Shown: positions 1-7,648 of the stretch, one piece after another
Layout: each line of letters opens with the position of its first letter
Position numbering within the stretch: the first letter of the stretch is position 1
IMG/VR virus record: IMGVR_UViG_2617270973_000013
Location: 1-7,648 of that record
Reading direction: 5' to 3' (one strand)
Length of the DNA: 7,648 nucleotides
Source of the DNA: a virus
Taxonomy: Duplodnaviria; Heunggongvirae; Uroviricota; Caudoviricetes
Position numbers and translations under genes: made by a program
The notes under the pieces: model-generated
The model's input: only the letters and a program-made list of their open reading frames with translations
What the model was told of the DNA's origin: nothing
Databases searched by the model: none

Positions 1-801
1 TATGTTTCTGATGCGATGAAAGTGGTGGATTCTGCCGTATCGGATGCCGCCAGGCTGTTGCAGGGGGATATCTCGGTACTTCTGCCGCCACCATCGTCAG
101 GCAAAAATCTCGTTGAGCAGGTGCAGAAAATGTGGCGTACCGGGAAACGCCTTTATGGTAACGCCAGCGACCTGGTCACCATGATCAAAACGCTTTCCGG
201 TGTCAGCCTCGGCAGCGATCTGCAACCGCGCGGCGTCTGGAAAACGGACAGTAAAACCACCGCCACGGCGACGCAGCAGCGTAATGTGGTTGCCAGCACC
301 CTTCGTACGACCGCAATCAGCGAAGCGGCGTATGCCGTCACCCGATTGCCTGCGCCAACAACTTCCGCGGTGATGCAGAATTCCGCAGTGGGGCAGGCAA
401 CAACACCTGCGCAGAGCACTGGCTGGCCTTCCGTCACGCATCCGGCACTGAACAATGCACCGGCGGTGAAAAACACGGTTGACCTGCCGACGTGGGAAGA
501 ACTGACTGACATTCGCGACACACTGAATACGGCAATTGATAAGGAGTTGTCCCGTACAACCAGTGATGCGCTGTTTCTGGCGCTGCGCCGGGTGAAAGCA
601 GATCTGAATGCGGATATCAACACGCGCCTTGAACAGTCTGCACGGATCATTCAGCGCACACCGGATGAGGTTTTACCCGCGCTGGTGCTGGCGGCGACCT
701 GGTTTGATAACGCGGCGCGTGACGCGGACATTATCCGGCGTAATGCCATTACGCATCCCGGCTTTGTGCCGGTGATCCCTCTGAAGGTGCCAGTGCAATG
801 A
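1..801 (+). CDS. Tail protein, 5'-truncated at window edge; likely Mu gp43 (N, DNA-circulation)-like C-terminal portion
   Basis: The frame is open from position 1 with no stop, and there is no Shine-Dalgarno before the ATG at 16, so the gene probably starts upstream of the window. Its stop TGA (799-801) overlaps the next gene's ATG (798-800) as ATGA. Identity is inferred from position immediately upstream of a gp44/P-like hub gene, as in Mu; the Ala/Thr/Ser-rich sequence was not recognised directly. Confidence 0.5.
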   Translation, partial: YVSDAMKVVDSAVSDAARLLQGDISVLLPPPSSGKNLVEQVQKMWRTGKRLYGNASDLVTMIKTLSGVSLGSDLQPRGVWKTDSKTTATATQQRNVVASTLRTTAISEAAYAVTRLPAPTTSAVMQNSAVGQATTPAQSTGWPSVTHPALNNAPAVKNTVDLPTWEELTDIRDTLNTAIDKELSRTTSDALFLALRRVKADLNADINTRLEQSARIIQRTPDEVLPALVLAATWFDNAARDADIIRRNAITHPGFVPVIPLKVPVQ

Positions 802-1877
802 ACGACAATGTCACGCTACGGGTAAATGGCCGGGAGTGGAATGGCTGGACATCGGTGCGCATCGGTGCCGGTATTGAACGGCTGGCGCGGGATTTCAGTG
901 TGGAGATCACCCGCCAGTGGCCGGGAGATGAGGGTATCACCACGCTTCAGCCGCGCATTAAAAACGGTTCAAAAGTGGAAGTGCTGATTGGTGATGAGCT
1001 GGTGATCACCGGCTGGGTGGAGGCGACTCCCGTTCGTTACGATGCCCGTTCGGTCAGCACCGGTATTGCCGGACGTAGTCTGACGGCTGACCTGATTGAC
1101 TGTGCAGCCGAACCGACACAGTTTAACGGACGCTCGCTGGTGCAGATTGCGCAGGCGCTTGCTGCGCCTTTCGGCATTGAGGTGGTGAACAGCGGTGCGC
1201 CGTCGGGTGTTATTCCTGATGTTCAGCCTGATCACGGTGAAACGGTGATTGAGGTAATCAACAAAATACTCGGTCAGCAGCAGGCACTGGCTTACGACGA
1301 CCCGCACGGCAGGCTGGTGATTGGCGGTATTGGCTCAACGCGGGCACATACTGCGCTGGTACTCGGGGAAAACATCCTTTCCTGCGATACGGAGAAGAGT
1401 ATCCGGGAGCGATTTTCTGTTTACCAGGTGGCGGGGCAGCGTGCCGGAAACGACGATGATTTCGGTGAGACCACCACCACCGCGCTGCGGGCCCGCACAG
1501 AGGACGCATTTATTGCCCGTTACCGTCCGATGTATATCAGGCAGACAGGGCAGGCCACGGGGGCAGGCTGTATTGCGCGTGCTGACTTTGAAGCCCGACA
1601 ACGGGCGGCGCGGACGGATGAAACCACCTATTTGGTGCAGGGCTGGCGACAGGGTAACGGTACGCTGTGGCAGCCCAACCAGCGGGTGATTGTCTTCGAT
1701 CCGGTCTGTGGTTTCGACAATACCGAACTGCTTGTCTCGGAAGTCACGTTCACTCAGGACCAGAACGGCACCATGACGGAAATCCGTGTCGGCCCACCTG
1801 ATGCTTATCTGCCTGAACCCGAAGCCCCCGGCGCGCGGAAAAAGAAAAAAGCCAGAGTGCAGGAGGACCCGTTCTGA
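798..1877 (+). CDS. Baseplate hub / tail protein, Mu gp44 (P) / P2 gpD-like
   Basis: 359-aa ORF, close to the size I recall for Mu gp44, in the expected position. Start overlaps the upstream stop (ATGA) and the stop overlaps the next start (TGATG at 1875-1879). The C-terminus carries a Lys-rich tail (KKKKAR). Confidence 0.7.
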   Translation: MNDNVTLRVNGREWNGWTSVRIGAGIERLARDFSVEITRQWPGDEGITTLQPRIKNGSKVEVLIGDELVITGWVEATPVRYDARSVSTGIAGRSLTADLIDCAAEPTQFNGRSLVQIAQALAAPFGIEVVNSGAPSGVIPDVQPDHGETVIEVINKILGQQQALAYDDPHGRLVIGGIGSTRAHTALVLGENILSCDTEKSIRERFSVYQVAGQRAGNDDDFGETTTTALRARTEDAFIARYRPMYIRQTGQATGAGCIARADFEARQRAARTDETTYLVQGWRQGNGTLWQPNQRVIVFDPVCGFDNTELLVSEVTFTQDQNGTMTEIRVGPPDAYLPEPEAPGARKKKKARVQEDPF

Positions 1878-2425
1878 TGAGGACGATTGAAGCCATGCAG
1901 CGACAACTCCTCGGCCTGATTGGGCGGGCAGTGGTGAAAAGCATCAGTGCCGCCACGAAATGTCAGACCGTGGATGTGTCCCTGATTGCCGGTGAACCCA
2001 AAGCCGGGGTTGAACATCTTGAACCCTACGGTTTTACCGCAAGGGCAAACAGCGGTGCGGAAGCGGTGGTGTTGTTTCCGGATGGTGACCGTTCTCATGC
2101 GGTGGTTGTTACGGTGTCGGACCGGCGCTACCGCCTGAAAGGGCTGCAGACGGGTGAGGTGGCTGTCTATGACGATCAGGGGCAGTCCGTGACGCTGGCC
2201 CGGGAGGGGATCGTGGTGGACGGTGCAGGTAAAACGATCACGTTTCGCAATGCGCCTAAGGCACGTTTTGAAATGGACCTGGAAGTGACCGGACAGGTGA
2301 AAGACCTGTGCGACTCCACCGGCACCACCATGTCAGCGATGCGGCTTGCCTATAACGGGCATCGTCACAGAGAGAACGGTCAGGGCAGTAACACCGACAA
2401 ACCTGATAAAGCGATGGAGGCATGA
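1877..2425 (+). CDS. Baseplate assembly protein V-like (Mu gp45-like spike/centrepiece)
   Basis: 182-aa ORF in the expected size and order for a gpV/gp45-like protein. Translationally coupled on both sides (TGATG upstream; ATGATG at 2422-2427 downstream). Confidence 0.65.
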   Translation: MRTIEAMQRQLLGLIGRAVVKSISAATKCQTVDVSLIAGEPKAGVEHLEPYGFTARANSGAEAVVLFPDGDRSHAVVVTVSDRRYRLKGLQTGEVAVYDDQGQSVTLAREGIVVDGAGKTITFRNAPKARFEMDLEVTGQVKDLCDSTGTTMSAMRLAYNGHRHRENGQGSNTDKPDKAMEA

Positions 2426-2850
2426 TGGAACTGTGGCTGACGGTGAACGGTAAACGCACCTGCGCCAGCGCACAACTGGATCCGCTGACCCGCGCCGTGG
2501 TGATTTCCCTGTTTACCTGGCGGCGGGCGGAGCCTGATGACAACGCCGACGTCCCGATGGGATGGTGGGGGGATACCTGGCCTGCGGTACAGAATGACCG
2601 TTACGGCTCCCGACTGTGGCTGCTTCAGCGCAGCAAACTGACCAATCAGCTGGTGCAGACGGTAAGGGGGTATATCCGCGAATGCCTGCAATGGATGATT
2701 GATGACGGCGTGGTGTCCCGTATTGATCTGGATATCCGCCGCACCGGGATTAATGAACTGGGTAACAGTATCACTCTCTGGCGTCGTGACGGACCGGTAA
2801 TGATTTCTTTTGATGATCTGTGGAGTGCGATAACGCATGGCGGACAGTGA
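2422..2850 (+). CDS. Phage GP46-family baseplate protein (Mu gp46 / P2 gpW-like)
   Basis: 142-aa ORF containing a WWGD motif of the kind I associate with the GP46 family. It overlaps the next gene by 14 bp. Confidence 0.65.
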   Translation: MMELWLTVNGKRTCASAQLDPLTRAVVISLFTWRRAEPDDNADVPMGWWGDTWPAVQNDRYGSRLWLLQRSKLTNQLVQTVRGYIRECLQWMIDDGVVSRIDLDIRRTGINELGNSITLWRRDGPVMISFDDLWSAITHGGQ

Positions 2851-3895
2851 ATTTCAGCGCCCGACGCTGGCAGAAAATATCAGTATGCTCCGTAACGATT
2901 TATTCGCCAGGCTGGACGTCAGCGACACGCTCCGGCGCATGGATGAAGACGTGCGGGCAAAGGTGTATGCGGCGGCGCTGCATACGGTTTACGGGTACAT
3001 CGATTATCTGGCAATGAATATGCTGCCTGACCTGTGCGATGAGTCCTGGCTGGCGCGACATGCTGCGATGAAACGGTGTCCGCGCAAGGGGGCCACGGCT
3101 GCCAGCGGGTATATGCGCTGGGAAGGTGTCAGCGATGGCCTGAAGGTGACCGCCGGGAGTGTTATTCAGCGCGATGACCTGGTTCAGTACACGGCAACTG
3201 CCGATGCAACCAGCTCCGGTGGTGTCCTGCGCGTGCCGATCGCCTGCTCAAGTGCAGGTGCGGTCGGTAACGCTGACGACGGTACGGCATTAATCCTGGT
3301 CACGCCGGTGAATGGTCTGCCGTCTTCCGGTGTGGCTGACACCCTTACAGGCGGATTTGATACTGAAGAGCTGGAAACGTGGCGCGCCCGCGTCATTGAG
3401 CGGTATTACTGGACGCCTCAGGGCGGGGCTGACGGGGACTATGTCGTCTGGGCTAAAGAAGTGCCCGGCATTACCCGCGCATGGACATACCGTCACTGGA
3501 TGGGAACGGGAACTGTCGGTGTGATGATTGCCAGCAGTGACCTGATTAATCCCATTCCGGAAGAATCAACGGAAACGGCAGCAAGACAACATATCGTGCC
3601 ACTGGCCCCGGTGGCAGGCTCTGATTTGTATGTATTCAGGCCGGTGGCACATACGGTGGATTTTCATATCCGCGTGACGCCGGACACACCAGAAATACGA
3701 GCCGCCATCACCGCGGAGTTGCGTTCGTTTCTTCTGCGTGATGGTTATCCGCAGGGAGAACTGAAGGTATCGCGTATCAGTGAGGCGATTTCCGGTGCGA
3801 ACGGGGAATATAGCCATCAGTTGCTTGCACCGGCAGACAATATCTCCATTGCGAAAAATGAACTGGCGGTTCTGGGGACGATTTCATGGACGTGA
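2837..3895 (+). CDS. Baseplate J-like protein (Mu gp47-like wedge subunit)
   Basis: 352-aa ORF, matching the size and position expected for a Baseplate_J protein between gp46 and gp48. It overlaps the next gene by 10 bp (ATG 3886, stop 3893-3895). Confidence 0.7.
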
Positions 3896-4470
3896 CAAAC
3901 GATGATTACATCCGTCTGTTGTCGGCACTGTTGCCACCCGGTCCGGCGTGGTCAGCCAGAGATCCGGCGATTGCCGGTGCGGCACCGTCATTAACCCGCG
4001 TTCATCAGCGTGCGGATGCCCTGATGCGGGAGCTGGATCCGCGCACCACCACTGAACTGATAAACCGCTGGGAGCGTCTGTGCGGTCTGCCGGATGAATG
4101 TATTCCGGCGGGAACGCAGACTCTTCGCCAGCGTCAGCAACGGCTGGATGCGAAGGTTAATCTGGCGGGCGGCATCAATGAGGATTTTTACCTTGCACAG
4201 CTTGCTGCCCTGGGCAGACCAGACGCTACTATCACGCGATACGATAAAAGCACGTTCACCTGCTCATCGGCCTGTACTGACGCAGTGAATGCGTCGGAAT
4301 GGCGGTATTACTGGCAGGTCAACATGCCAGCCGCCACCAACACCACCTGGATGACATGTGGCGATCCCTGTGATTCCGCACTGCGTATCTGGGGCGACAC
4401 CGTTGTCGAGTGCGTGCTTAACAAACTCTGCCCGTCGCATACCTACGTAATTTTTAAATATCCGGAGTAA
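3886..4470 (+). CDS. Mu gp48 / P2 gpI-like tail protein (DUF2313, YmfQ-like)
   Basis: 194-aa ORF directly upstream of the tail fibre, the length and position I recall for YmfQ/gp48-family proteins. Stop TAA at 4468-4470 is followed 3 bp later by the stf ATG, with GGAG at 4464-4467. Confidence 0.65.
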
Positions 4471-4473
4471 TCC

Positions 4474-5238
4474 ATGCATCGTATAGACACGAAAACCGCG
4501 CAGAAGGATAAGTTCGGCGCGGGTAAGAACGGTTTTACCCGTGGTAACCCCCAGACCGGCACACCTGCCACCGATCTGGATGATGACTACTTTGACATGT
4601 TGCAGGAAGAACTCTGCAGCGTGGTGGAGGCATCCGGTGCCAGCCTGGAGAAGGGGCGGCATGACCAGCTGCTTACCGCGCTTCGTGCGCTGCTGTTAAG
4701 CCGCAAGAATCCGTTTGGTGATATCAAATCGGATGGCACGGTGAAAACGGCTCTCGAAAACCTTGGTTTGGGAGAAGGTGCTCCAGCTATTGGCGTTCCG
4801 TTCTTCTGGCCGTCCGCCGCAATGCCAGATACCGTAATCGAAAGCTGGTCCGGCATGGTGTTTTTGAAGTTCAACGGCGCGAAATTCTCTGCCACTGATT
4901 ACCCTGTGCTGGCGAAAGTGTTTCCTTCGCTGGTATTACCTGAAGCCCGCGGTGATTTCATTCGTATCTGGGATGATGGTCGTGGTGTAGATAGTGGACG
5001 TGGATTACTTAGTACGCAGTCTGACCTGATGAAACAATTTACTTTGCAATACTACGGTCCTTCTGCTGGTACTGGAACAAGAACGGTTTTCGCCCTCCAG
5101 AGTAATGCGAACGGCATATATACGAGTGGTATTAGTCAGAATGATGGTAGTGGCACCGCTGCGGCTTTTAATGTACCAGGCGGCACCGAAACACGCCCAC
5201 GTAACATTGCATTCAACTTTTTAGTAAGGGCTAAATAA
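4474..5238 (+). CDS. Tail fibre protein (constant N-terminus Sc, residues 1-~97, fused to variable C-terminus Sv in the present orientation)
   Basis: 254-aa ORF. The N-terminus has a [16 protein letters not shown] motif resembling Mu S / P2 H N-termini (from memory). The C-terminal part ([10 protein letters not shown]...[15 protein letters not shown]) resembles a phage tail-collar / receptor-binding domain. The crossover site sits in-frame at codons 94-101 (LENLGLGE). Stop TAA 5236-5238 overlaps the tfa ATG (TAATG). Confidence 0.8.
4751..4776. repeat. Left crossover site (Hin/Gin-type, 12-2-12): CTCTCGAAAACC-TT-GGTTTGGGAGAA
   Basis: Both half-sites fit the TTnTCnnAAACC pattern recalled for hix/gix/cix sites. 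A perfect 14-bp inverted copy of 4763-4776 occurs at 6608-6621. The site lies inside the stf coding sequence. Confidence 0.8.
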
Positions 5239-5831
5239 TGAAACCTGTTTTTGATAAAAATGGGCTGGCTACAGTGCCGGGTGATATGCGTTGTTTTTAT
5301 TATGATGCAGTAACGTCTGAATATACTGGCTGGTCTGATGAATATATTAATACTGGTGTAAGTATGCCCGCCTGTTCCACTGGTATTGACCCGGGCGAAT
5401 ACATTCCGGGGAAAGTGGCAGTATTTACGGGTAAGGGATGGAGCCATGAAGAAGACCACCGCAATGAGACTGCTTACTCAATCGAAAATGGCGCAGCTGT
5501 TACAGTGGATTATATCGGTGCCATCAAAGACGGTTATGTCACGCTTTCACCGTTAACGCCATACGATAAATGGGATGGTGAGAAATGGGTGACAGATACT
5601 GAGGCACAGCATAGTGCCGCAGTAGACGCGGCAGAAGCACAGCGCCAGTCGCTGATTGATGCTGCAATGGCTTCCATCAGTCTGATTCAACTGAAATTGC
5701 AGGCCGGGCGGAAGCTGACGCAGGCAGAAACAACCCGACTTAACGCCGTGCTGGATTACATTGACGCGGTGACGGCAACAGATACCAGCACCGCGCCGGA
5801 TATCATCTGGCCTGAACAGCCGGAGGCGTAG
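5238..5831 (+). CDS. Tail fibre assembly chaperone (Tfa / Mu U-like)
   Basis: 197-aa ORF coupled to stf. The C-terminus (LDYIDAVTATDTSTAPDIIWPEQP) carries the conserved tail-fibre-assembly motif and an N-terminal FYYD motif. Confidence 0.8.
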   Translation: MKPVFDKNGLATVPGDMRCFYYDAVTSEYTGWSDEYINTGVSMPACSTGIDPGEYIPGKVAVFTGKGWSHEEDHRNETAYSIENGAAVTVDYIGAIKDGYVTLSPLTPYDKWDGEKWVTDTEAQHSAAVDAAEAQRQSLIDAAMASISLIQLKLQAGRKLTQAETTRLNAVLDYIDAVTATDTSTAPDIIWPEQPEA

Positions 5832-6243
5832 GCCATTCAATATCTGGAGCACTGGAAATATCAACCATTTCCAGTGCGTCCAGATAATCAAGCCATGAAT
5901 TATATTGCGCCAGTTCCTCACCTTTCAGACGACCAATAGCAGCCTTTCCTGGCCACTGCTTACTGTTAATATATTCATTAACTCGATTTATGAGTGCCTG
6001 TTTTTTTCGTTCCGCTTCTGACAGTTGTTCTTCATGAGTTAGCGGCGGTACGTCATCCCATGCAGGATAGCCATCATCACCCGCAACTCTCACCTTCCCT
6101 GGAGGTGGGGACAGGTACTTAATAAATATATCCTCATCAACTTCAACTCCATTATGAGGCCATAACCCAGACTCCTTATACTGACTTTCCAGAGTAAATG
6201 GGTAAAACATATTAGTTTTAGCATCGTAAAGATATTTACTCAT
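5803..6243 (-). CDS. Alternative tail fibre assembly chaperone (Tfa' / U'-like) inside the invertible segment
   Basis: Begins MSKYLYDAKTNMFYPF, a typical Tfa N-terminus, and ends with the conserved LDYLDALEMVDISSAPDIEWPTPP motif. Start ATG at 6243-6241 is preceded by AGGAAG and lies 1 nt after the Sv' stop (TAA at 6247-6245). The 24 extra upstream codons in the ORF track (to 6315) overlap the end of Sv' and are judged not to be the real start. Confidence 0.8.
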   Translation of the reverse strand: MSKYLYDAKTNMFYPFTLESQYKESGLWPHNGVEVDEDIFIKYLSPPPGKVRVAGDDGYPAWDDVPPLTHEEQLSEAERKKQALINRVNEYINSKQWPGKAAIGRLKGEELAQYNSWLDYLDALEMVDISSAPDIEWPTPPAVQAR

Positions 6244-6244
6244 T

Positions 6245-6621
6245 TTATCTTCCTGTAGCAAACCAGCGGCAACCAGCGACAGTTGGAACATTGAAGGATG
6301 GATTTCCTTTATCAAGAGATCCCAGGTTCTCTGCTATGACATTTGAGTTAGTCAATTTATAGAATTGCCATACTGACATTTTCCCTGCCACAGGAGCCTG
6401 GTCATGTTCATTAATAGAAATGACGGCTGTCGGAAATGGGATAGGAAAATTAATCAAAACTTCATTTGTTGTGGCCCCAGTTAGCCCCCATTGTTCAATA
6501 TAACCATCCGGGCTTCGCCTCCATCCCGTCGTTGTATCTCCCCCACACTCCCACGCTGACATATCAGGAATTTGGTTTTGCCCGTTACCCACATCCCGTT
6601 TTGCCGCTTCTCCCAAACCAA
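6245..6621 (-). CDS. Alternative tail fibre C-terminal cassette (Sv'), start-less; expressed only as an in-frame fusion to Sc after inversion
   Basis: - strand ORF with no ATG; the track's initial 'M' is a TTG at 6616-6614. Directly stitching the sequence after inversion at the crossover core gives ...ENLGLGE-AAKRDVGNGQ..., in frame with stf codons 1-98. It is immediately followed by tfa' in the stf-tfa arrangement. Confidence 0.75.
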
Positions 6622-6633
6622 CCTTTCAAATAT
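6608..6633. repeat. Right crossover site: TTCTCCCAAACC-AA-CCTTTCAAATAT (inner half canonical, outer half degenerate)
   Basis: Positions 6608-6621 are the exact reverse complement of 4763-4776. The core AA is the complement of the left core TT, as required for inversion. The site ends 59 bp upstream of the invertase ATG. Confidence 0.8.
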
Positions 6634-6660
6634 TTTTCTGAATCAGGTGATATTTCGCCT

Positions 6661-6687
6661 CTTCTCCTGTTTTTACAACAGGAGAAG
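6661..6687 (+). promoter_or_regulatory. Perfect 10-bp stem / 7-nt loop hairpin (CTTCTCCTGT-ttttaca-ACAGGAGAAG) whose 3' arm contains the invertase Shine-Dalgarno
   Basis: Inverted repeat read directly from the sequence. No U-tract follows on either strand, so it is not a canonical intrinsic terminator. It could equally be a palindromic protein-binding site. Confidence 0.4.
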
Positions 6688-6692
6688 CACTC

Positions 6693-7256
6693 ATGATTTA
6701 CGGGTATGTACGTGTATCAACAAATCATCAGGATACAGAGTTGCAACGTCTTGCACTTGAGTCAGTTGGCTGTGAGCGAATTTATGAAGAATATGCCAGT
6801 GGCAGAACAGCTAATCGCCCTGTGTTAAAGGAATTAATTACGGTGATGAAAAGTGGAGATGAGTTGATTGTCTGGAAGTTAGATCGGATAGGGAGAAATG
6901 TGCTGCATGCGCTATTGATGTTTCAAAATCTGCACGAAAAAGGTGTTAATTTTCGGAGTATTACAGATGGCGTAGACCTGAAAACAGCAAGTGGTCGCTA
7001 TAATTTCCGTAATATTCTTTCTGCTGCGCAGTATGAATCTGATTTGAATAGCGAGCGAACTTTAGCTGGTTTGGCTATTGCCAGATCCAAAGGCCGGATT
7101 GGTGGGCGTAGACCGAAGTTTAGCGACGAGCAGTGGCAACAGATGGGAGCGCTCATAGCGGCAGGGAAATCACGGCGTTATGTTGCACGTATCTATAACG
7201 TTGGGCTATCAACCCTATATAAACGATTTCCTGTTACTGGCATTCAAACGAAATAA
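6693..7256 (+). CDS. Serine recombinase, DNA invertase of the Hin/Gin/Cin/Pin family
   Basis: 187-aa ORF with N-terminal YGYVRVSTNHQDTELQ (catalytic Ser in the YVRVST motif), VWKLDRIGRN, and C-terminal GRIGGRRPK and helix-turn-helix-like region (RRYVARIYNVGLSTLYKR). Strong SD GGAG at 6681-6684, 8 nt before the ATG. It lies directly outside the right crossover site. Confidence 0.9.
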   Translation: MIYGYVRVSTNHQDTELQRLALESVGCERIYEEYASGRTANRPVLKELITVMKSGDELIVWKLDRIGRNVLHALLMFQNLHEKGVNFRSITDGVDLKTASGRYNFRNILSAAQYESDLNSERTLAGLAIARSKGRIGGRRPKFSDEQWQQMGALIAAGKSRRYVARIYNVGLSTLYKRFPVTGIQTK

Positions 7257-7399
7257 TTTAAAAGCAATTTAAAGAGTTATTTGTCTAATGTTGGAAGCCG
7301 CAGCCACGTCGTATGCAAGAACGTGCTGCGGCTGGCTGGCGAACTTTCGATAGTGCGAGTATTGAATGATTTCCAGCCGTTACCGATTTTACGTGTTAA

Positions 7400-7648
7400 T
7401 TAGTGAACAAACCACTCGTCAGCAGATTCCCAGGTATCTTTCAGAGTCTCCTGAACAAAAGTTTTTGCAGAATCCTTATCTGCGGTGCGTGTAACAGAAA
7501 GGCCATCGTTGCTGGTGGCTTTTACGATCACCTCTACATCGTCATAACGTTTACTGATGCGTCGGGTTAATTCTTCCTTTAACGCATCCACAGCACCGGT
7601 TGGCATTTTAGTCATTTTTTCTTTGGCTATGCAGATTTCAATACGCAT
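7400..7648 (-). CDS. DinI-family protein (DNA-damage-inducible protein I-like)
   Basis: 82-aa ORF; the N-terminus MRIEICIAK and C-terminus [17 protein letters not shown] closely resemble E. coli DinI as I recall it. The ATG lies exactly at the window end (7648-7646), so its promoter and any LexA box are outside the window. Confidence 0.7.

Follow-up and report, generated by a model that had tools for sequence, protein, structure and literature searches.

Why does the base composition of a prophage change abruptly part of the way through a single tail-fibre gene, and what does the change record about the genes on either side of it? The question is raised by a 7,648-nt stretch of a virus of the Caudoviricetes (IMG/VR record IMGVR_UViG_2617270973_000013, positions 1 to 7,648), referred to here as the window, which from its sequence is a piece of an SfV/e14-like Escherichia coli prophage with a Mu-type baseplate, then a Pin-type invertible fibre switch and then a dinI-like gene. 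A sequence-only reading had noted by eye that 1-4470 is GC-rich and that the DNA from inside Sv, the variable part of the tail-fibre gene S, through to the dinI-like gene is AT-richer, and had suggested that the host-range module was acquired or exchanged separately from the structural core. We hold it very probable that recombination made this break, in a mosaic prophage whose conserved baseplate block is joined there to an exchanged, invertible host-range cassette.

The impression of a break gained by eye is confirmed by sliding-window and change-point analysis. The guanine plus cytosine (GC) content of the whole window is 53.1%, with 57.8% at 1-4470 against 46.6% at 4474-7648 (46.0% at 4763-7256), and in sliding windows of 300 nt it stays between 0.54 and 0.61 until about 4800 and between 0.39 and 0.55 thereafter. 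A single change point fitted by maximum likelihood falls at 4854, with a support interval (2 log units) of 4689-5005, and thus inside gene S, some 300-400 nt past its start at 4474. Recursive segmentation returns 4854 as the sole significant break (p = 0.002, which is the floor for 500 shuffles), leaving 1-4854 and 4855-7648 each homogeneous. Further compositional sub-blocks were rejected, as binary segmentation gave no second significant change point, and a local GC bump at 5551-5850 (0.55) corresponds to a widely shared C-terminal block of Tfa, the tail-fibre assembly chaperone. The earlier placing of the break inside Sv therefore stands, in that it lies at the joint of the constant and variable parts of S near 4777, but its start coordinate of 4474, which is the beginning of S itself, does not.

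Codon usage changes with base composition. All six baseplate genes have a GC content at third codon positions (GC3) of 0.60-0.65, and the constant part of S (Sc, its first 101 codons) has one of 0.62, while right of the joint the values are 0.43 in Sv, 0.47 in tfa, 0.35 in the alternative chaperone gene tfa', 0.37 in the alternative fibre part Sv', 0.36 in the invertase gene and 0.41 in dinI. Within S alone, 63/101 codons end in G or C left of the joint and 66/153 right of it (Fisher p = 0.003). The left and right gene sets differ in synonymous codon usage (summed chi2 = 192, 41 degrees of freedom, p = 2e-21), and odd-versus-even gene controls inside each block gave no significant difference; the relative synonymous codon usage of the left block correlates with that of flanking host genes at r = 0.83, and that of the right block at 0.40. 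Neither GC nor codon usage is thus uniform across the window, and the chance that the GC difference is a mere fluctuation appears negligible, given the segmentation and codon-usage probabilities above and a log-likelihood ratio at the change point of 54.5, against a maximum of 27.3 across 1000 shuffles of 150-nt blocks.

One possibility is that selection on, or the function of, the genes themselves causes the step, with no separate ancestry, for example through low-expression codon usage, through AT-rich DNA that favours H-NS or Fis binding or prophage silencing, or through the amino acid composition of fibre tips. It may be consistent with this that in every backbone examined (Mu, e14, a P2-like prophage and another Mu-like prophage) the baseplate genes are GC-richer than the neighbouring fibre-tip, tfa and invertase genes, a pattern that a shared constraint could yield. 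However, GC at second codon positions is nearly constant between the two blocks while GC3 falls by about 0.2, so that amino acid composition, which we considered as a cause and rejected, is not behind the GC step. The low-GC tract also takes in dinI and int, which are functionally unrelated to the fibre, and the identity breakpoints and the distribution among backbones described below show exchange directly, so that constraint may act in addition to exchange but not instead of it. We therefore judge an origin by selection alone to be very unlikely.

What, then, is found at the joint? In the orientation as found, S (4474..5238, plus strand) encodes 254 amino acids and is divided into Sc, its constant, GC-rich N-terminal part of 101 codons (4474..4776), and the AT-richer Sv (4777..5238), and tail-fibre families of the PHROG database match residues 1-103 and 75-254 of S separately. 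The last 26 bp of Sc form the left crossover site, CTCTCGAAAACC-TT-GGTTTGGGAGAA (4751..4776, plus strand, core dinucleotide 4763-4764), and the right crossover site, ATATTTGAAAGG-TT-GGTTTGGGAGAA in its minus-strand reading, lies at 6608..6633 (core 6620-6621). Both have 12-bp half-sites around a 2-bp TT core, with an identical inner half, GGTTTGGGAGAA, and they stand in inverted orientation; a 20-nt inverted repeat returned by a repeat scan is part of both. This is the format of the published 26-bp crossover sites of Din invertases, at which switching of fibre alleles has been described (PMC4134206).

The invertible segment between the two cores is 1855 bp long (4765..6619), and while the constant 5' part of the fibre gene lies outside it, the two 3' parts lie inside, each with its own chaperone gene and in mirror orientation. 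Sv is followed by its cognate chaperone gene tfa (5238..5831, plus strand; Pfam Caudo_TAP, E = 4.8e-28; PHROG 105; GC3 0.465). On the minus strand, Sv' (6245..6619; GC3 0.367) is a promoterless alternative C-terminal fibre part that would be read solely after inversion, its frame being continuous with Sc across the crossover site, and it is followed by tfa' (5803..6243; Caudo_TAP, E = 4.5e-34). The mechanical open reading frame of tfa' begins at TTG 6315, giving 170 amino acids and an overlap with Sv', but the start is likely to be ATG 6243 (146 amino acids), because this codon lies 2 nt past the Sv' stop and homologues of 146 amino acids are annotated in phage SKA5 and in E. coli. Inversion of 4765-6619 in silico fused Sc in frame to Sv', producing an alternative fibre S' of 221 amino acids, which matches Pfam Gp53-like_C (E = 6e-12) and has the tfa' ATG 2 nt beyond its stop. 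To the right of the segment lies a serine DNA invertase gene of the Pin/Gin type (6693..7256, plus strand; Pfam Resolvase 4.4e-36 and HTH_7 7.4e-12; PHROG 125, 'DNA invertase', 3.5e-72; GC3 0.362) and beyond it the DinI-like gene (7400..7648, minus strand; Pfam DinI 1.1e-19). By its sequence the switch is intact, and by every sequence criterion that we tested the locus belongs to the Din family (Gin/Cin/Pin/Hin) of invertible fibre switches. Its invertase would be expected to flip the 1855-bp segment, so that Sc would be joined in frame to Sv (with tfa) in one orientation and to Sv' (with tfa') in the other, and two alternative receptor-binding fibres would result. In Gin, Hin and Cin systems inversion depends on a recombinational enhancer in cis, bound by Fis and lying within the 5' part of the invertase gene.

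Two further repeats were considered and set aside. A 15-nt inverted repeat (4778-4792 / 5838-5852) beside the left site was rejected as a third recombination site, as it is a coding coincidence between GAPAIG in Sv and SAPDIEWP at the conserved C-terminus of Tfa', and a pattern scan found no GGTTT...GAA half-site in it; a direct repeat of 73% identity (7055-7080 / 7339-7364) was regarded as a chance match. We also observed that the equivalents of window 4474-5238 in two of the fetched loci (L003 10474-11220 and L009 5482-6249; WP_274480369.1 and WP_480001217.1) are named 'integrase' by RefSeq/PGAP, which is an annotation error, since S matches tail-fibre PHROGs and has no recombinase domain.

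Just upstream of the invertase ATG at 6693 there is, in addition, a perfect 11-bp hairpin, CTTCTCCTGTT-TTTAC-AACAGGAGAAG, at 6660-6686 (context 6634-6710), the 3' arm of which includes the AGGAG Shine-Dalgarno sequence. The leader RNA is predicted to fold at -24.8 kcal/mol (z = -4.5), and other invertase leaders (e14, two P2-like elements and others) likewise place a stem over the ribosome-binding site, with different sequences; covariation is weak, with double changes in 3/9 pairs of a 7-sequence alignment. From this sequence evidence the hairpin may dampen translation of the invertase.

That the joint is one of recombination is indicated by where similarity to relatives ends. Similarity to the Shigella phages SfV, SfI, SfII and SfIV (97.4-97.8% over 1-4777) ends one base past the left site, and the published homology between SfI and e14 ends at SfI 17,234 (PMC3636060), which in alignment coordinates is window 4777. 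SKA5 matches on both flanks, at 97.7% over 1-4777 and at 99.6% over 6607-7648, and differs in its content between the sites, where a tfa block equivalent to 5188-6066 is reversed relative to the window. When a probe of 1000 nt centred on the joint was searched in 5426 complete E. coli genomes it matched 2011, of which just 55 span the joint; in an evenly spaced sample of the matches, most start at probe position 1 and stop at 498-501 (window 4775-4778), while a smaller group begins at window 4666-4758 and runs rightwards from a different upstream gene. Near-identical prophages have different cassettes after base 4777. The left-site sequence itself is identical in SfV, SKA5, e14 and other relatives, and the inner half-site GGTTTGGGAGAA, or a one-base variant of it, is present in all the relatives examined, the outer half-site varying with the backbone.

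SfV itself offers a further observation at this position. A complete 26-bp site identical to the left site of the window is found inside its fibre gene orf21 (SfV locus L001, 10751-10776), and a pattern scan and the annotated locus revealed neither a second crossover site nor an invertase. The fixed fibre end of SfV is 69% identical to the 'off' allele S' of the window, and its sequence suggests that SfV descends from an ancestor with a switch and has become locked.

The two sides of the joint also differ in the company they keep, as becomes clear when the best matches of each are compared. At low stringency, 1-4470 matches 27 phage records of a single lineage, with SfV, SfI, SfII, SfIV and SKA5 at about 98% (97.4-97.9% over both 1-4470 and 1-4777) and ST64B, phiP27 and similar phages at about 65%. 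By comparison, 4778-7648 matches 285 records from several lineages, including Peduoviridae, lambdoid siphoviruses (phi80, mEp237, HK97, mEp460 and Stx phages) and phages of Klebsiella, Salmonella, Citrobacter and Yersinia, and parts of the cassette are also found on non-mobilizable phage-plasmids of about 93 kb.

The AT-richer tract is, on these sequence matches, at least five separately distributed pieces rather than one module. The first, 4778-5007, is about 92% identical to Peduoviridae phage 500465-2 and myovirus vB_EcoM-611R5 and 97.5% identical to the E. coli prophage in L003. The second, 5008-5196 (plus strand), is the distal tip of Sv and is missing from these same three elements, which match on both sides of it (92-98%); a 226-nt probe spanning the tip (4990-5215) was found in only 24/5426 E. 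coli genomes, 20 of which match it at 100%, and of two carriers inspected one is a P2-like prophage and the other a different prophage with a Mu-like tail. The tip thus behaves as a separately exchanged sub-cassette and is probably the receptor-binding end. The stretch 5197-6066 is common to many elements at 90-98%, its core at 5550-6066 being found also in Klebsiella phages (89.4%) and its tfa portion matching the tfa gene of HK97, and 6067-6606 is matched only by L003 among the fetched loci. The right site and invertase (6607-7294) recur in SKA5 with 99.6% identity and match the pinL region of phi80 at about 80%, whereas the dinI block (~7295-7648) is 92-98% identical in lambdoid siphoviruses such as mEp460, Stx phages and cdtI (97.7% in mEp460 and 94-97% in Stx phages over 7295-7648). 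The separate acquisition or exchange proposed by the sequence-only reading is thus supported, except that what was exchanged is not a single module and the low GC runs on past it. The cassette and its sub-parts are distributed independently over at least four kinds of backbone.

As an aside, the order fibre fragment, crossover site, invertase and DinI recurs at about 80% identity between phi80 22807-24432 and window 6560-7648, where the phi80 version consists of a tail-collar pseudogene, pinL and dinL, the match extending over dinL, the DinI gene of that phage. This recurrence suggests that invertase and dinI may travel jointly as an accessory unit near the attachment-site end.

How might such a patchwork have arisen? 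Under the favoured explanation, the Mu-type baseplate block and the 101 codons of Sc on the left would be conserved and vertically inherited in the SfV/e14 lineage. On the right, the Sv-tfa / tfa'-Sv' cassette between its two 26-bp sites, and then the Pin-type invertase and the dinI-like gene, would be pieces that circulate independently in many enterobacterial phage lineages and retain a lower GC and a codon usage unlike that of the host. Three anchors are conserved on every backbone, namely the Sc linker with the left site, the inner half-site, and the right site with the invertase, and recombination at these could replace the whole cassette or parts of it; because replacement would occur at conserved anchors, the compositional step would stay sharp. 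The exchange mechanism itself, homologous or site-specific, is something that we infer. As to why the cassette pool should be AT-richer, the simplest reading would be rapid turnover among backbones of different composition.

It is possible to take the position of the breaks more literally. Invertases of the Din family might swap cassettes between co-resident elements in trans at the 2-bp core, in which case the joint would be a scar of site-specific recombination. The homology breaks at 4777 and 6607 do lie at the edges of the two 26-bp sites, the inner half-site and the TT core are common to all backbones while the outer half-sites are backbone-specific, SfV retains an orphan site with no invertase, and invertases are known to act in trans on the segments of other prophages (PMC12529663, PMC4134206). 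However, conservation of the inner half-site is obligatory for switch function under either model, and similarity would therefore stop there under homologous recombination too. Wild-type Gin and Hin invertases, moreover, strongly prefer inverted sites on one supercoiled molecule. The sub-cassette breakpoints at 5007/5197, 5550 and 6066 lie far from any site, and homologous or illegitimate recombination would be needed there. Taken together, we think a swap catalysed by invertases unlikely. Its broader form would make the 26-bp sites portable docking sites, at which the invertases of co-resident prophages replace cassettes at the 2-bp core, and would explain both the pile-up of breaks at 4775-4778 and 6607 (about 2000 E. 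coli genomes) and the orphan site of SfV as site-specific scars; to this idea, and to the scars it implies, we would likewise give a small chance of being correct. To our knowledge, cassette exchange of this kind has not been demonstrated so far. The idea was raised in the fibre-evolution literature of the 1990s (Sandmeier 1994, as cited in PMC4134206).

Comparison with known systems places the window close to e14. The nearest named relative of its switch is the P segment with pinE of E. coli K-12 (ymfQ-ycfK-tfaP / tfaE-stfE-pinE), with which it shares the upstream backbone of gp47 and ymfQ (the junction probe is 96.6% identical until the left site), an identical left site and the same inner half of the right site, the mirror layout Sv-tfa / tfa'-Sv' followed by the invertase, and the GC step itself (GC3 of 0.63 in ymfQ against 0.34-0.41 in tfaP, tfaE, stfE and pinE). 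It differs in the cassette, since identity is only about 40% between Sv and the StfE part and 62% between Tfa and TfaE, and tfa' matches TfaP in its C-terminal half alone. Moreover, e14, which is integrated at icd, has been reduced to a remnant by deletion and carries mcrA downstream of pinE, whereas the window has a full baseplate, dinI follows its invertase, and its closest relative is located at dusA. Inversion in e14 has been seen in culture (PMC4272514), and in a 2025 paper inversion of its P segment by PinQ in trans was reported to give a chimeric fibre, StfE2, that blocks adsorption of T2 (PMC12529663).

The Shigella phages SfV, SfI, SfII and SfIV share with the window the whole set of its baseplate genes as well as Sc and the left site in full (26 bp), and their GC falls at the same place; unlike it, the serotype-converting phages that we inspected have neither invertible segment nor invertase, SfV having a single fixed fibre end and one tfa gene, followed by gtr genes and int. 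The G segment of Mu with Gin is similar in the gene order gp43-gp48 followed by S-U / U'-S' and an invertase, in its inverted 26-bp crossover sites with a serine invertase adjoining the segment, and in the GC of its fibre and invertase genes (0.43-0.47) relative to its baseplate genes (0.53-0.56), and the C segment of P1 with Cin is a comparable system. In Mu, however, the G segment is 3 kb rather than 1.86 kb, the site core is TC rather than TT with the inner half-site GGTTTACAGGAA, the GC falls at the start of S (Mu Sc has 47% GC) and not at the crossover site as in the window, where Sc is GC-rich, and gin is followed by com and mom instead of dinI. Among the phage matches listed, neither block has a Mu record, and the S and Tfa proteins of the window had no match to a Mu protein at E <= 1e-3.

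P2-like prophages (Peduoviridae, e.g. 500465-2) carry Sv and tfa DNA that is 90-97% identical to that of the window, with the same inner half-site, and the published crossover sites of EC958 Phi2 have the same '...TT GGTTT.GG.GAA' format (PMC4134206). Their baseplate is unrelated (P2 V-W-J-I type), the constant part of their fibre is far longer (500465-2 has a 501-aa tail protein), their outer half-site is TTCTCGCATACC and their invertase is only about 70% identical at the DNA level. It is established that fibre C-termini and chaperones are exchanged among unrelated phages with joints at crossover sites (Sandmeier 1994, as cited in PMC4134206). In e14 and Mu, too, GC and GC3 are lower in the fibre and invertase genes than in the baseplate genes, and in a P2-like prophage the fibre module forms a GC trough within GC-rich tail genes.

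This trough bears on a more modest interpretation, in which the break does no more than mark where the GC-rich Mu-type tail block ends and the entire right arm is AT-richer, the host-range module being in no way compositionally special. In SKA5 and SfV, genomes of 50.7% GC each, the Mu-type tail block, with the baseplate, is at 0.57-0.59 and the next ~10 kb after the Sc joint at 0.42-0.48, and the drop in SfV comes at the corresponding position even in the absence of a switch. On the other hand, an account of this kind describes the pattern and explains nothing, and it is compatible with exchange of the cassette; moreover, in P2-like prophages GC-rich tail genes lie on both sides of the trough, which implies that the cassette carries its low GC along. 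We consider this account possible, if doubtful, and continue to prefer a recombination joint between a conserved baseplate block and an exchanged cassette.

There are nevertheless several points that weigh against that preference. The change point (4854) and the homology joint (4777) do not coincide, the former being about 80 nt further right, although the support interval includes 4777. The low GC extends beyond the host-range module, through dinI and the integrase gene and, in SKA5 and SfV, over about 10 kb of early genes, so that the switch is no more of an outlier than the GC-rich Mu-type tail block, and part of the GC step may be a boundary between the late structural operon and an accessory arm. 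Finally, exchange is deduced from presence or absence and from identity breakpoints, and it is from the sequence that the present copy would be predicted still to invert.

On the GC-rich side of the joint, Pfam domains show the Mu-type baseplate gene set in the order gp43-gp48, all on the plus strand. The block begins with the 3' part of a Mu gp43/N-like DNA circularization (tail) gene, which is cut by the start of the window (1..801; GC 0.579, GC3 0.634) and whose counterparts in SfV, SKA5 and E. coli CM2010-0578/1, with which it aligns, are annotated 'DNA circularization protein'. It is followed by a Mu gp44/P-like baseplate hub gene (798..1877; GpP-like_1st, Gp44-like_2nd and GpP_4th; GC3 0.628), a gp45-like baseplate assembly gene (1877..2425; Phage_Mu_Gp45, E = 1.5e-24; GC3 0.634), a gp46-like baseplate gene (2422..2850; GP46, E = 5.8e-33; GC3 0.650), a gp47 or Baseplate_J gene (2837..3895; Baseplate_J, E = 3.6e-52; GC3 0.603) and, as the last complete gene of the block, a gp48/YmfQ baseplate wedge gene (3886..4470; Phage_Mu_Gp48, E = 7.3e-27; GC3 0.610).

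The closest match to the whole window is E. coli CM2010-0578/1 (97.7% over 98% of the window), which differs at the Sv tip and in which dinI is followed by an integrase gene and then by the host gene dusA; none of the records in the E. coli collection reaches >=99% over the full window. The SfV family, to which the window and many E. coli prophages are similar, consists of temperate myoviruses, and SfV/e14-like prophages combine a lambdoid genome with a contractile tail of Mu type. Among the relatives lambdoid genes are present, cI, O, Q and Rz in SKA5 and cI, cro and Q in SfV. Outside the window, SKA5 (L004) has a pocket of low GC at 27001-29000 (0.43-0.47), between the tape-measure gene and gene N, which contains a hypothetical protein gene inside an otherwise GC-rich tail block and may be a moron-type insertion.

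What, finally, does the break mean? Mosaic fibre genes, invertible host-range switches and their lower GC are textbook for Mu, P1, P2 and e14, and the drop in GC at the joint where fibres are swapped is ordinary, well-documented phage mosaicism that was already known. The value of the finding as discovery is thus small, and its practical value is for annotation: a GC step within a fibre gene pinpoints the joint of its constant and variable parts together with the crossover site, and it also marks the portion of the fibre that can be swapped in order to retarget phages or tailocins.

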